Positions 5,800 to 35,502 of a stretch of DNA of 41,372 bases are shown in pieces. The translations under genes and the position numbers were made by a program. The DNA lies in the IMG/VR virus record IMGVR_UViG_2778261576_000004, positions 1-41,372 of that record. One strand, given 5' to 3'. Each line of letters opens with the position of its first letter. Positions within the stretch are counted from its first letter, which is position 1. The notes under the pieces are model-generated. The model did not search any database and had not been told where the DNA came from. It saw only the letters and a program-made list of their open reading frames with translations. The stretch is from a virus (lineage: Duplodnaviria > Heunggongvirae > Uroviricota > Caudoviricetes).

Positions 5800-5862
5800 T
5801 TACCCAACAGGTAAATGCACCTCATGGGTAACTATCCTTGATTTTTGTTACCTTATGGGTGA
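5800..5862. promoter_or_regulatory. OR-like operator region: palindrome 5800-5814 (perfect) and 5848-5862 (one mismatch)
   Basis: TTACCCAACAGGTAA and TTACCTTATGGGTGA in the 154-bp divergent intergenic region between repressor and Cro-like genes. Confidence 0.55.
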
Positions 5863-13925: not shown

Positions 13926-13940
13926 TTACCACAACGGTAA
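13926..13940. promoter_or_regulatory. TTACC-N5-GGTAA palindrome upstream of the terminase small subunit gene
   Basis: Perfect TTACCACAACGGTAA between the terminator and ATG 13958 (17 nt upstream); a partial repeat (CTATTACCAC) follows. Confidence 0.45.
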
Positions 13941-32208: not shown

Positions 32209-32649
32209 CTATTCACAATTAGTGATGGCGTATGTATCAAATATATTGCCATCACTAAATACATACCTATACTCAATCACTCCGCCAAGGTGAATAAATG
32301 CTTTCATTTGCCTGTTGGAGCAAATGCTCGATTTTGAATAATTTCGCATTACACTCTTTAATTTATTTTCTAAGGTTACATCACCATTATAAACTTTTGA
32401 TAAATAGCTGTTGTTGTAATTAAGATGCGCTACAACTAAAAGTTTGTTTAGTATTGCATTTATTGAAACAATAGACATATTATCATTCAATTTTATGGGA
32501 AGTGACTTTCCTGCTTCTGATGCAATTTTGTTTGCATGTGCACACATATCCTCATTTATTAAATTCTTAAAACATATGTCGTTTGCAAACGAAAAAATTG
32601 GTAGGATAAACAAAACGGTAGCTGTAATAGCGTGCATCGGCTTAATCAT
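32209..32649 (-). CDS. Hypothetical secreted protein (AT-rich accessory gene)
   Basis: N-terminal signal-peptide-like segment (AITATVLFILPIFSFA); strongly AT-rich coding sequence; convergent with the upstream virion gene. Confidence 0.4.
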   Translation of the reverse strand: MIKPMHAITATVLFILPIFSFANDICFKNLINEDMCAHANKIASEAGKSLPIKLNDNMSIVSINAILNKLLVVAHLNYNNSYLSKVYNGDVTLENKLKSVMRNYSKSSICSNRQMKAFIHLGGVIEYRYVFSDGNIFDTYAITNCE

Positions 32650-32661
32650 TAGGTGACCTTT

Positions 32662-33111
32662 ATGTTCAAGAAGATGATCAACAGATTAATCGGTGGTAAG
32701 GAGGTTAGCAATAAAATTCAACCTCTTATCTTTAAGGATAACTTTTCAGCTTTTGAGTATGCGTGTAAGTATCTTGACACAAGCCTTTCAGCCAATAAAC
32801 CAATGCCAGCCATCATCATACCTGGTCCCAGTGGGGAACAGCCAGTTTTGCTGGATTCTGGAAGACAAAGGGCAATGCTGAAGGTGTGCTCAGCTGATGG
32901 TGGATTTTTTGTTATTGCCGATTCATCTTACAGCAAAGGACCAAAGCTGAGGATTGGTGATCTTGTTGCTTGGTTGCCTGTGAGTTATGCCGAAGAATTA
33001 ACGGATAAAATAGAAGATCCTCGCTCCGCTATGGTTGGCTTTATATTGGGAACCATTCATCCTGAACTAACATCTACTGGCTGGAAGGGTAAAGAAAGAT
33101 TTCGCAAGTAG
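32662..33111 (+). CDS. Hypothetical protein (AT-rich accessory gene)
   Basis: ATG 32662 with AGGTGA SD; divergent from the 32209-32649 gene with almost no spacer; followed by a terminator. Confidence 0.4.
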   Translation: MFKKMINRLIGGKEVSNKIQPLIFKDNFSAFEYACKYLDTSLSANKPMPAIIIPGPSGEQPVLLDSGRQRAMLKVCSADGGFFVIADSSYSKGPKLRIGDLVAWLPVSYAEELTDKIEDPRSAMVGFILGTIHPELTSTGWKGKERFRK

Positions 33112-33125
33112 CGTGACATGTCACA

Positions 33126-33149
33126 GGCCGCTTTCGCGGCCTTGTTTTT
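33126..33149 (+). terminator. Rho-independent terminator
   Basis: GGCCGC-TTTC-GCGGCC hairpin followed by TTGTTTTT; directly preceded by the GTGACATGTCAC palindrome. Confidence 0.6.
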
Positions 33150-33309
33150 AACGAATGCCACCGCCGCCCGGACGGGAATCCGCAGAACGCCCACCGCAGC
33201 GGGAGCCGTCAGCAGCAGTGTCGCTGTCGTGCTGACAACGACCGGCAAAGGCCTGAGTTGAAGCTACCAGAGACAACAAAACGAACAGTGCAGCAAATGC
33301 TTTTTTCAT
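33148..33309 (-). CDS. Hypothetical small secreted peptide
   Basis: Predicted signal peptide MKKAFAALFVLLSLVASTQAFA followed by a 31-aa Gly/Arg-rich tail with two Cys; weak SD. Confidence 0.25.
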   Translation of the reverse strand: MKKAFAALFVLLSLVASTQAFAGRCQHDSDTAADGSRCGGRSADSRPGGGGIR

Positions 33310-33401
33310 TGTGAAATTTCCATCTATAAGCCACCTCAATGTGGCGTCAATGAGTGTAGCACTGACTTTTGTTTCGCCCACAAAAAAGCCCGCAGCGCGG
33401 G

Positions 33402-33842
33402 CTATTCTTCTTCATCATTAAAAAGCGGATTGTTGTTTCCATCTGATGAAAGGAAAGGTATGTGTTCTCTTGAAAATCCAACAATGACAATTTCATTATC
33501 ATTTTTTGCATAATGAATGCATTCATTAGAATGCCTTCCGCCAGGGTTGAAATTTAAGTTAATGGTATAATTCTTAAATGTGTTTGGATACCATGTTGGC
33601 CCACAATGATAATGCCAATAATTCTCTTGCTCATAATTGTCTGAGCCGGGAATTTTATCATGGTTATCATCAACCCACGAGGGCTTGTTTTTTCCAACAA
33701 GCGCCCTTCCATTGGCAACATCCTCTAAAAAACTTTGTATGATTTTTATTTCATCATCAGTAAGGAAAGGTCCGTCTACAGCGAAAGGGGTGTTGCTTTC
33801 CCCATGTAGAAAACTATTAGATATTCTAATGTTAAACTTCAA
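33402..33842 (-). CDS. Hypothetical protein (AT-rich, probable TTG start)
   Basis: TTG at 33842 preceded by CAGGAG SD; AT-rich; downstream partner of the 33863-34030 gene. The ORF-track N-terminal extension to 33983 overlaps the better-supported small gene. Confidence 0.4.
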   Translation of the reverse strand: MKFNIRISNSFLHGESNTPFAVDGPFLTDDEIKIIQSFLEDVANGRALVGKNKPSWVDDNHDKIPGSDNYEQENYWHYHCGPTWYPNTFKNYTINLNFNPGGRHSNECIHYAKNDNEIVIVGFSREHIPFLSSDGNNNPLFNDEEE

Positions 33843-33862
33843 GGAAAACTCCTGATGTGCTT

Positions 33863-34030
33863 CTATTTGGAGCGAAATGCCGCCTTGAAGTCGCTGAAAG
33901 ATGTTCCTGTCTGGTAAACCATATCCTTGTCGCGCTCTTTGCTTGCGCGGCCAAGCATAACTTTTCCAATGACATCCCAGCATTGCTTGGCTTGTTCATT
34001 GTGCTGAGTACGATTTTTCAACGCTGTCAT
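33863..34030 (-). CDS. Hypothetical small protein (55 aa)
   Basis: ATG 34030 with a strong AAGGAGG SD 6 nt upstream and a palindrome copy directly 5' of it; translation MTALKNRTQHNEQAKQCWDVIGKVMLGRASKERDKDMVYQTGTSFSDFKAAFRSK. Confidence 0.4.
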   Translation of the reverse strand: MTALKNRTQHNEQAKQCWDVIGKVMLGRASKERDKDMVYQTGTSFSDFKAAFRSK

Positions 34031-34042
34031 ATCGCGCCTCCT

Positions 34043-34057
34043 TTACCTTTAAGGTAA
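34043..34057. promoter_or_regulatory. TTACC-N5-GGTAA palindrome at the 5' end of the small-gene cassette
   Basis: Perfect TTACCTTTAAGGTAA abutting the SD; upstream on the minus strand are a TTGCAG -35-like and TACTAT -10-like hexamer with 17-bp spacing. Confidence 0.4.
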
Positions 34058-34129
34058 TAGTACGCTATTCACCCACAGTCTGCAATCTGTACAGAATTAT
34101 TTAAAGGCACATCCCTGTGCCGCCGCCCG

Positions 34130-34786
34130 TCAGAAGAACCCAGCCTTGTCGTTGATGTACTCCGCGTGGGTCTGGATATCACGCAGGCATTTGCTCACAC
34201 CAACAATGTAGCAGAACATGGTGGTCAGCTCCGCCGCCGCACCCGATACGTCGTGCCCGTCTTCCTGTAACTGGTTCAGCAGATTCATCAGCAGTGAGTT
34301 CTCCGTCAGGCCGAGAACACCAGACGGCGAATGAATCAGGCTACGGTAGCCGGGCTTCAGTGGGGCGCTGTATTCTTTTTTGTCTTCCAGCTTGATCGCC
34401 TCCATAATGGCGGGCATGAAGCCTGACAAGACCTTCTCCACTTTTGTTTCTTGTTGTCTTAAACGTTTCTCGCATTCAATGAAGTAGCGTCGCACCTGGC
34501 GACCTTTTTCGTTACGCTCGACCATCGCCAGCTCTTTGGCTGTATCAAGGGTGAGGTGGTACTCTTTGCGGTTGTGGCCGCCTCTACCAGATGTTTGCTT
34601 TCCCAAATTGGAAAGCAAAATATAGTCTTGATTTTCAATGAATTCGTATTCTGATATGCGATTTGTAATCCATGCTGCAAACACCTTTTTAACACCTAAA
34701 AAAGCGTGCAGATCGCGGGCATTACAAAGTAGGGCTGTTTCGTTAGATATAGTGCCGTTGAATACGGGGATGAGTTGAGCGTTCAT
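34130..34786 (-). CDS. Phage antirepressor (AntA/AntB-type N-terminal domain)
   Basis: N-terminus [38 protein letters not shown] matches the AntA pattern as recalled; C-terminal domain shared with the 35104-35361 product; GGAGA SD. Confidence 0.7.
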
Positions 34787-35103
34787 GATGGCGTCTCCAC
34801 TTAGCGAATTACATCACCACCGCTGAGACCAATCAGATGGTGGTGAACTGAACGGAGTTGGTCTTACCGGCCTAAGTGGTACCGGCGTCCTTTCGGACCC
34901 CCATTCAGCCCACCATAATTCTGGCATGACTGTGCTATACGCATAAAAAAACCACGTCTGGCGTGGTATGCGCCACTTAGTAATCCGGGAGACCAATCCC
35001 GGCACTGGATTTTGCCAGTGCCCGATTACTATGGCACAAGAGGAGTGCGATGTAAATTTACCGCAAAGGTAAATATAAGCACTCCTTTTGGTAATTGCAA
35101 ACC
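34787..35103 (-). other. Structured non-coding leader/spacer with intrinsic terminator
   Basis: Several perfect hairpins (e.g. CCGGGA-GACCAA-TCCCGG, CACTGG-ATTTTG-CCAGTG), a minus-strand terminator (CCACG-CCAGA-CGTGG then T7) near 34943-34964, and a palindrome copy (35058-35072) nested in an 8-bp stem (AGGAGTGC/GCACTCCT). Confidence 0.4.
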
Positions 35104-35361
35104 TTATCTGGTTTGTTTACGTAATTGTTCGGCACAATAGTCGAGATGTGTTTGCAGATCCCGCATAGACATCTGTGAGCTGGTGACGTAGTTAATCAGT
35201 GCAGTCAGTTCGGCAAGTGGGCCATCGACATTAAATCCATCCTTATCGAGCTCCCGGAGTAATTTCATCAAGTGCGATCCCTCCACCAGTGATCTGACGC
35301 CTCCCGGCGTGTGAATCCTTTCGGTAAATCCGTCTTCCAGTGGATAGTGATACTGCTGCAT
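35104..35361 (-). CDS. Small protein homologous to the antirepressor C-terminal domain
   Basis: ...TPGGVRSLVEGSHLMKLLRELDKDGFNVDGPLAELTALINYV... aligns by eye with ...[42 protein letters not shown]... of the antirepressor; ATG 35361 with GGAGAA SD (ORF-track TTG at 35379). Confidence 0.45.
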   Translation of the reverse strand: MQQYHYPLEDGFTERIHTPGGVRSLVEGSHLMKLLRELDKDGFNVDGPLAELTALINYVTSSQMSMRDLQTHLDYCAEQLRKQTR

Positions 35362-35437
35362 CTTATCTTCTCCATGCAATAACTGTATATTTATACAGTA
35401 TCAAATAATTTGTTTGCTATCCAGCACGTTTTGAAAA

Positions 35438-35502
35438 TTACCTGAAAGGTAATATATATTCGTATTTACAGCCTTTCTATCCATATGTGGTTTTACAGGT
35501 AA
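35438..35502. promoter_or_regulatory. Palindrome (35438-35452) plus TATGTGGTT box (35484-35492) and GGTAATA in the divergent region upstream of the tailspike gene
   Basis: TTACCTGAAAGGTAA is identical to the copy upstream of the portal operon. Confidence 0.45.

Follow-up and report, generated by a model that had tools for sequence, protein, structure and literature searches.

A putative toxin-antitoxin-like gene pair with a predicted RelE/ParE-fold protein in an exchangeable slot of a Uetakevirus from Escherichia coli

The stretch of DNA analyzed here (the window: 41,372 nucleotides (nt), positions 1 to 41,372 of the IMG/VR virus record IMGVR_UViG_2778261576_000004) is a phage or prophage of E. 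coli that belongs to Uetakevirus (epsilon15/phiV10-like). The minus strand of the window carries, next to an antirepressor gene, a cassette of two adjacent genes that encode proteins of 55 and 147 amino acids (aa). The reading that we favor, on balance, is that this cassette is a mobile toxin-antitoxin (TA)-like module in which the 147-aa protein is a candidate toxin with the RelE fold, probably a ribonuclease (RNase), and the 55-aa protein is a candidate antitoxin without a DNA-binding domain. The observations behind this reading are the structure and conservation of both genes, the predicted fold of the larger protein, the obligate pairing of the two genes and their mobility as a unit, the exchange with a YafO toxin pair in the same slot of a related phage, and the multiple copies of an operator-like palindrome. 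The elements of the cassette are the following (SD, Shine-Dalgarno sequence; CDS, coding sequence; PGAP, the RefSeq Prokaryotic Genome Annotation Pipeline).

34080..34085, minus strand: -35-like hexamer TTGCAG, read from the sequence, 3/6 match to the consensus, identical in phage TL-2011b despite the different cargo there
34057..34062, minus strand: -10-like hexamer TACTAT, 17 nt after the -35 hexamer, 4/6 match to the consensus
34043..34057, no strand: 15-bp palindrome TTACCTTAAAGGTAA, probable immunity operator, overlapping the end of the -10 hexamer, the predicted transcription start and the first SD base
34037..34043, minus strand: strong SD AAGGAGG, 6 nt before the ATG at 34030
33863..34030 including the stop codon, minus strand: gene of the 55-aa partner, candidate antitoxin (phrog_8607; PGAP CDS WP_000125783)
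33849..33854, minus strand: weaker SD CAGGAG, 6 nt before the TTG at 33842
33402..33842 including the stop codon, minus strand: gene of the 147-aa, TTG-initiated protein, candidate toxin (phrog_5954; PGAP CDS WP_000671198)
33380..33403, minus strand: intrinsic terminator AGCCCGCGCTGCGGGCT followed by a T-run, identified by a terminator scan, with a GC-rich hairpin (33403-33387), closing the cassette

The original prediction, made from the sequence of the window, described all these elements, from the promoter-like pair to the TTG-initiated open reading frame (ORF), and each of them is in place; the terminator is an addition to that description. The cassette promoter, which is sigma-70-like, is a more qualified case: the hexamers are there with the 17-nt spacing, but their match to the consensus is weak, and the pair is absent from the list produced by a generic promoter scan. 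This promoter is credible because the layout in which a -10 hexamer abuts TTACC is common to other copies of the palindrome. The promoter and the terminator enclose two genes only, with no dedicated regulator gene as a third, and the gap between these genes is 20 nt, with the CAGGAG inside it. The same terminator also closes the alternative YafO cargo in TL-2011b. An Rfam match to Trp_leader over the terminator (E=0.47, below the gathering score) was dismissed as chance.

Both ORFs are genuine genes. The CDSs called by PGAP coincide with these two ORFs, down to the TTG start of the larger one (441-nt CDS), and their products are named hypothetical proteins; both proteins belong to PHROG families of unknown function. 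The TTG start that had been proposed for the larger gene is borne out by comparison with homologues, which align from this very position: TTG is the start codon in E. coli, Serratia, Pectobacterium and Klebsiella aerogenes, GTG in Erwinia and ATG in distant members. Among the viral loci, 32 of 76 start with TTG, and all 30 loci with at least 57% identity keep it, so that this codon has been retained despite considerable divergence. In 6 of 7 homologues, in-frame stops are located 1-8 codons upstream of the aligned start, which excludes the 193-aa form from the ATG at 33983 that is called by some annotators and overlaps the 55-aa gene. The AT-richness of the 147-aa gene, also pointed out in the original prediction, is evident, with a GC content of 0.36, compared with 0.47 for the 55-aa gene and 0.50 upstream.

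The AlphaFold2 model of the 147-aa protein, built from the alignment of the family, is confident (pLDDT 91.6, pTM 0.86) and predicts a compact alpha/beta fold in which an antiparallel sheet packs on N-terminal helices, the defining arrangement of the RelE/ParE superfamily. In a Foldseek search with this model, RelE/ParE-type families rank first, with non-significant E-values of 0.17-1; therefore, the predicted RelE/ParE fold is taken as well supported and homology with the superfamily as likely but unproven. A Foldseek search against the viral structures of BFVD yielded nothing significant for this protein. An alignment of 25 homologues, with identity down to 37%, contains 22 invariant residues, which include the GKNKxSW and WHYHCG motifs, D59, Y70, N99, G102, Y111, S124, H127 and P129; the variants within E. 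coli are confined to variable positions. The conserved set of His, Lys, Tyr and Cys residues consists of K51, K53, H77, H79, C80, H110, Y111 and H127, and, in the model, the HxH pair (H77 and H79, along with C80) maps to one strand, H110 and Y111 to the next strand, and H127 three residues past the last strand. In the RelE-family RNases YoeB, YafQ and HigB, catalysis relies on residues located on the face of the sheet and close to the C-terminus. As placed by the model, the invariant His and Tyr residues of the 147-aa protein appear to occupy the positions where these RNases hold the catalytic ones. Compared with the RelE/ParE toxins (RelE, YoeB, YafQ, HigB, ParE and BrnT), the cassette shares the antitoxin-first operon, the short intergenic gap and the location in mobile elements, but the 147-aa protein has no detectable sequence similarity to any of them, is longer (147 aa vs ∼90 aa) and acidic overall, and belongs to a family with its own invariant motifs (GKNKxSW, WHYHCG) and a new partner family.

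The model of the 55-aa protein consists of two helices, 2-36 and 45-53, and has moderate confidence (pLDDT 71.6, pTM 0.35), with a low-diversity alignment behind it; such a two-helix prediction is what would be expected of a peptide that folds on its target. Structure prediction of the individual proteins, one of the checks proposed at the outset, thus yields a RelE-type fold for the larger protein and two helices for the smaller one. The small protein matches no Pfam, NCBIfam or PADLOC model, and no DNA-binding domain was detected in this protein, by a Pfam scan or in the AlphaFold2 model, or in its longer counterparts, whose N-terminal extensions contain no known domain. That neither protein would fall into a recognized family was already suspected from the sequence, and indeed, no curated family covers either.

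The two genes appear to be inseparable. In all 10 of the non-viral or earlier loci, the large gene is preceded, at a distance of 0-31 nt, by the end of a co-directional ORF, and such an upstream ORF is also present in all 76 loci from IMG/VR. A hidden Markov model of the partner matched 39 of the 3090 ORF segments in these 76 loci, and all 39 are the adjacent upstream ORF; in the other 37 loci, the upstream protein is ∼185-216 aa long, and its last 45 residues contain the same motif (hhalign P=3.7e-4). An ORF that encodes this C-terminal motif of the partner, LGR...Y...SF.DF..A, immediately precedes the large gene in all the contexts examined. These contexts are the Uetakevirus-type slot in prophages of E. 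coli, Serratia and Pectobacterium, the lambdoid nin region in Klebsiella (partner of 102 aa), contigs that resemble small Rop/Rep plasmids, contigs of Proteus, a prophage of Pasteurellaceae (partner of 159 aa) and, in Erwinia persicina, an islet of just the two genes, flanked by accA and housekeeping genes. The partner is an ORF left uncalled in K. aerogenes and in one more plasmid-like contig. Small, adjacent, co-oriented genes with a short gap or none that are inherited together in unrelated contexts are a hallmark of type II TA modules, and a constant C-terminal motif on variable N-termini, always beside the same downstream gene, is, at the sequence level, the architecture of a type II antitoxin. 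The other hallmark, an antitoxin with a DNA-binding domain that autoregulates the operon, is lacking. The Pasteurellaceae pair (locus L011, 1-3369) is located directly after a giant MuF-type polyvalent protein with ART-PolyVal and LPD domains, so that the phage surroundings of the module differ there. The 147-aa protein has homologues in 34 clusters from Enterobacterales and Pasteurellaceae, and a profile search of 1.84 billion proteins identified 121 representatives at 50% clustering. Among the complete genomes of E. coli, 77 of 5426 (∼1.4%) carry the cassette, always whole and always on the chromosome.

The slot occupied by the cassette is itself informative. The sequence of TL-2011b matches that of the window through the promoter and the palindrome of the cassette, and then again from the stop codon and the terminator onward; in between, it encodes a 59-aa protein (gp45) and a 181-aa protein (gp44), the latter of which passes the threshold of the Pfam family YafO_toxin PF13957 (26.3 bits vs the cut-off of 25). 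The gp45/gp44 pair and the cassette of the window, accordingly, occupy an identical slot framed by the promoter/operator and the terminator. Among related phages, some lack this cassette or have replacement cargo in the slot. In EC.W1-9 and ZX5, the slot contains overlapping genes for a 108-aa protein and a 167-aa DUF2335 predicted membrane protein, which may be another defense or exclusion pair, and in phiV10, it is nearly empty. The coordinates of this cargo are given below.

EC.W1-9 stretch L023, 1693-2494, and ZX5 stretch L024, 2193-2994: DUF2335-type cargo

The relationship of the 147-aa protein to YafO is suggested by sequence profiles, which falls short of proof. Pairwise, the 147-aa protein and TL-2011b gp44 are not significantly similar (BLASTP E=1.5), and the window protein does not match PF13957 at E<=1. 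Comparison of the 147-aa family with a YafO alignment by hhalign yields E=0.12 with small profiles and, with 120 family members, a weak match with P=0.012 over 76 collinear columns; the real score was reached by none of 100 column shuffles and by one of 100 block shuffles. The conserved elements follow the same order as in YafO, namely, a helix with LTxxE, then G(K/R)(N/D), a strand with HxH, another with H/Y(/C) and, last, a hydrophobic strand with a His after it. As the hhalign link is suggestive only, the 147-aa protein was not assigned to the YafO family. YafO itself is treated as a small separate super-family that was first thought to be RelE-like (PMC7180214; PMC3141249), and a PDB sequence search with the YafO profile found no relevant entry and no solved YafO structure. 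The YafN-YafO pair of the E. coli dinB operon resembles the cassette in having a small gene upstream of the toxin gene and in being proteobacterial and rare, but the partner in the window is not a Phd/YefM-type protein like YafN (it has no Pfam domain and only two predicted helices), and the window protein differs from YafO in its longer insertions and acidic C-terminal tail. The original prediction likened the layout of the cassette to that of TA, abortive-infection or immunity pairs, and the predicted RelE/ParE fold, the invariable co-inheritance of the partner and the YafO pair in the same slot of TL-2011b all point to a layout of the TA type.

The palindrome at the cassette promoter is better written as TTACC-N5-GGTAA, of which the window contains 10 exact and 4 one-mismatch copies, compared with 0.66 copies expected and at most 3 in 100 shuffles. 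The copies beyond the cassette are located as follows.

5026, 5088, 5800, 5848, 6185, 8131, 8193, 13926, 13944, 17086, 35058, 35438 and 38409: further copies of TTACC-N5-GGTAA

The copies at 5800 and 5848 lie between the divergent genes of a 194-aa helix-turn-helix repressor (5744-5160, PF01381) and a 76-aa cro-like protein. Most of the others are intergenic and directly follow -10-like hexamers at the starts of transcription units, including those at 35058 (the promoter upstream of ant), at 35438 (between a 91-aa gene and the tailspike gene) and in the region upstream of the portal operon; the pair at 13926/13944 is inside an ORF. Together, these copies look like a phage-wide operator regulon, and TTACC-N5-GGTAA is, judging from its distribution, probably the immunity operator of the phage; a literature search found no paper that defines this operator (PMC9782041). 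TL-2011b and the relatives from Serratia and Pectobacterium retain the palindrome at the cassette promoter; it is present at 23 of the 76 viral loci, all of the Uetakevirus type, and absent in the other contexts. The proposal that the cassette is under operator control gains from the recurrence of the palindrome between the repressor and cro genes but has to be amended in that the palindrome belongs to the slot of the phage and not to the module. From this distribution, we infer that the cassette promoter is gated by the phage repressor rather than being a self-regulated TA promoter.

On one side, the cassette is flanked by the antirepressor gene and, on the other side, by the gene of a conserved 53-aa protein with a signal peptide; the accessory region that holds it is bounded by the genes of a 1129-aa protein and the tailspike.

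34130..34786, minus strand: AntA-type antirepressor gene (PF08346, E=4e-26; phrog_377), directly upstream of the cassette

The terminator scan found no terminator between the antirepressor gene and the cassette. Just upstream of ant, on the minus strand, there are Rfam matches above the gathering score to the isrK Hfq-binding RNA (34945-35021, 67.7 bits) and the C4 antisense RNA (34836-34920, 61.2 bits), as well as a below-threshold match to the c4 a1/b1 target within 34836-35034; given the isrK and C4 matches, Ant appears to be under antisense control of the P1/P7-immI or Gifsy-1 isrK-anrP type. The region thus resembles the immI loci of P22 (mnt-arc-ant) and P1 (c4-icd-ant), in lying next to the tailspike gene and in having an antirepressor gene with c4/isrK antisense RNAs upstream of it; unlike in those loci, the cassette of the window is extra cargo downstream of ant, outside the ant control circuit. 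The 91-aa ORF (35104-35379, minus strand, phrog_450) is homologous to the C-terminal domain (∼residues 135-216) of the neighboring 218-aa Ant and looks like a stand-alone copy of that domain. After the cassette terminator, the gene of the 53-aa protein (33148-33309, minus strand, phrog_14503, ‘membrane associated protein') has its own promoter-like TTGACG-17-TATAGA; the protein has a signal-peptide-like N-terminus and a Gly/Arg-rich tail and is kept in TL-2011b and EC.W1-9 regardless of the cargo in the slot. Further along, 32209-33111 contains two more low-GC (0.31-0.43) cargo genes that point away from each other, one on the minus strand, for a 146-aa protein with a signal-peptide-like start (phrog_8772), and one on the plus strand, for a 152-aa protein (phrog_9944); at the equivalent place, TL-2011b encodes an Arc-like repressor and another Ant.

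Under the TA-like reading, the cassette would be a mobile two-gene, type II TA-like unit, an exchangeable cargo that a Uetakevirus prophage carries in its accessory slot, downstream of the antirepressor gene. The 147-aa protein would be the toxin and act, most likely, as an endoribonuclease linked to translation, of the RelE/YoeB/YafQ/YafO type, and the 55-aa protein would bind it via the conserved C-terminal motif and neutralize it. The relative dosage could be set at translation, with AAGGAGG and ATG for the antitoxin, and a weaker SD and the conserved TTG for the toxin. Because the small protein lacks a DNA-binding domain, control in this phage would be delegated to the element that hosts the module: in a quiet lysogen, the shared operator would hold the module down alongside the lytic genes, with the phage repressor presumably binding the palindrome, and when immunity is lifted or partly lifted, the module would come on. 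Stabilization, abortive defense and growth modulation under stress are candidate roles. In regulatory logic, the closest precedent is paaR2-paaA2-parE2 of prophage CP-933P in E. coli O157:H7, which is prophage-borne and combines a RelE/ParE-fold toxin and a small helical antitoxin without a DNA-binding domain with CI/Cro-like phage control (PMC8630535). That operon, however, encodes its own regulator, PaaR2, whereas the window cassette has no third gene and would be controlled in trans by the phage repressor; furthermore, the candidate toxin of the window looks, in the model, RNase-like, not ParE-like as in parE2. More tentatively, the cassette might represent an unrecognized RelE/YafO-like toxin family, with an antitoxin devoid of DNA binding and with firing wired to the immunity switch, being one of several interchangeable, repressor-gated two-gene cargos beside ant in Uetakeviruses; we rate this extended version as possible but rather doubtful. 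If it is true, the module would be an RNase coupled to induction or stress that reshapes host expression, which would explain the published phenotype in serum resistance and capsule, and it may also abort superinfection.

Data that bear on the function of the cassette have been published under another name. Prophage phiv142-3 of avian pathogenic E. coli (APEC) is 99.5% identical to the window across the cassette region, and its ‘orf10' maps as follows.

33554..33712, minus strand: ‘orf10' of phiv142-3 (QGF19616.1), a 52-codon out-of-frame ORF inside the 147-aa gene, frame offset 1, equal to the published knockout interval

As a gene, orf10 (52 aa) was rejected: it is out of frame, and this frame contains 5-13 stops in homologues. 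The lambda-Red primer arms (PMC7724020) map to 33772-33713 and 33553-33494, so the deletion removed residues 45-97 of the 147-aa protein, including GKNKPSW and WHYHCG, and left the small gene intact. According to Li et al. 2020, the mutant grows normally in LB, gives a lower yield in chicken serum with survival of ∼60%, has kps transcripts roughly two-fold lower, and reaches reduced loads in the blood and heart of chickens; in serum, the level of the orf10 transcript increases 2^4.12-fold, and other phage genes go up as well (PMC7724020). For the complementing fragment, the paper gives no more than "coding sequence and putative promoter" (PMC7724020), and a fragment so ill-defined makes the published complementation uninterpretable. 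These results show that the cassette region is transcribed in lysogens and inducible, and that the bacteria tolerate losing the core of the putative toxin, which is what one would expect if the gene encodes a toxin. The original claim that the module is undescribed holds in that no paper on the family was found, by accession or PHROG id, but has to be tempered inasmuch as the gene had already been deleted and phenotyped under the name of a mis-called ORF.

Several points weigh against a TA-like module. No sequence search connects the 147-aa protein to a toxin family at a significant level: there is no Pfam, NCBIfam or PADLOC match at E<=1, a Pfam scan of 45 distant relatives found no bridge to YafO, and a PDB sequence search with the family profile found no match. 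The charges of the two proteins, with pI 4.9 and net -11 for the 147-aa protein and pI 9.8 for the 55-aa protein, are the opposite of those in the classic RelE/RelB pair, with the large protein acidic and the small one basic; the median pI across the 147-aa family is 6.4, and the YafO proteins compared range from ∼5.8 to 11.3, with 7.0 for YafO of K-12. The window protein is also considerably longer than RelE (147 aa vs 85-95 aa); it has an extension at the N-terminus and, between strands, a long insertion. The fitness loss of the knockout in serum is not predicted by a purely selfish toxin. Nor does simple addiction fit well, as a stable lysogen would keep the module mostly switched off, should the palindrome be the immunity operator.

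An alternative is a domesticated, non-toxic pair that benefits the lysogen, in which the RelE-fold protein would be, for example, a selective RNase or an RNA-binding regulator that adjusts host gene expression, such as that of the K1 capsule genes, with the small protein as its cofactor or chaperone. This alternative, which we consider unlikely, draws on the phenotype of the core deletion (survival of ∼60% in serum, approximately halved kps transcripts, lower loads in chickens and no defect in LB; PMC7724020), the acidity of the large protein and the lack of sequence-level membership in any toxin family. What it does not account for is the spread of the pair, on its own, to small plasmid-like contigs and to an islet on a chromosome, as is typical of selfish modules, the active-site-like set of invariant His, Lys and Tyr residues on what is predicted to be a toxin fold, and the YafO toxin pair in the same slot of TL-2011b; moreover, the effects that were published are modest, the fragment used for complementation is undefined, and the authors believed that another reading frame was under study. 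An improbable view makes the cassette a tool of the lytic cycle, a RNase that would shut off host translation or counter host defense, with the small protein as a timing inhibitor, given that gating by an immunity operator implies production on induction or infection. The operator common to the lytic/early promoters and ant, the rise of the transcript in serum along with the replication genes orf40 and orf41 (PMC7724020) and the location of the cassette at the 3' end of the isrK/c4-ant region all fit this view, but the same pair also exists without the operator where there is no phage, namely, on plasmid-like contigs and in an islet on a chromosome, and phiV10 manages without cargo in the slot. 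This view concerns the biological role and is compatible with a toxin/antitoxin mechanism.

The mechanism itself could differ in two ways, both with low probability. The 147-aa protein could be ParE-like in activity, poisoning DNA gyrase or another non-RNA target, with a PaaA2-like small partner; the partner indeed resembles PaaA2 in size and in the two-helix prediction (PMC8630535). Against this possibility, which seems highly improbable, three to four invariant His residues and a Tyr are located on the sheet and immediately past its last strand, a RNase-like placement, and the weak profile similarity is to YafO, a RNase. Still less probable, to the point of being hardly credible, is a reversed polarity as in hicAB, whereby the small, basic upstream protein would be the toxin and the larger, acidic downstream protein the antitoxin. 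In their sizes (55 and 147 aa), gene order and charges (pI 9.8 vs 4.9), the two proteins do resemble HicA and HicB. However, the large protein is predicted to adopt a toxin fold rather than the RNase-H-like fold of HicB with a DNA-binding domain, the model of the small protein, of low pTM, contains helices only and does not look like a double-stranded-RNA-binding domain, and neither protein matches the Pfam families of HicA or HicB. The distant branch, in addition, keeps only the C-terminal 45 aa of the partner on variable larger proteins, which is an antitoxin pattern, and the mutant that lacks residues 45-97 grows normally in LB, so that the large protein is unlikely to be an essential antidote (PMC7724020).

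Modules of this kind are well known; what appears to be new is the family, the partner motif, the repressor-gated exchangeable slot and the correction of orf10. Every database name for the 147-aa family is "hypothetical protein", with no curated model, and the analysis provides a testable identity for two such proteins found in many phages and plasmids of Enterobacterales, a structural context for the poorly understood YafO branch of toxins, and, for the phiV10-like phages, a probable 15-bp immunity operator and a slot, framed by a promoter and a terminator, in which two-gene modules are swapped. The virulence-associated "orf10" of the APEC prophage phiv142-3 is an out-of-frame call, a correction to the literature; because the published knockout removed the conserved core of the RelE-fold protein, serum resistance is to be re-examined as an effect of a toxin-like RNase.

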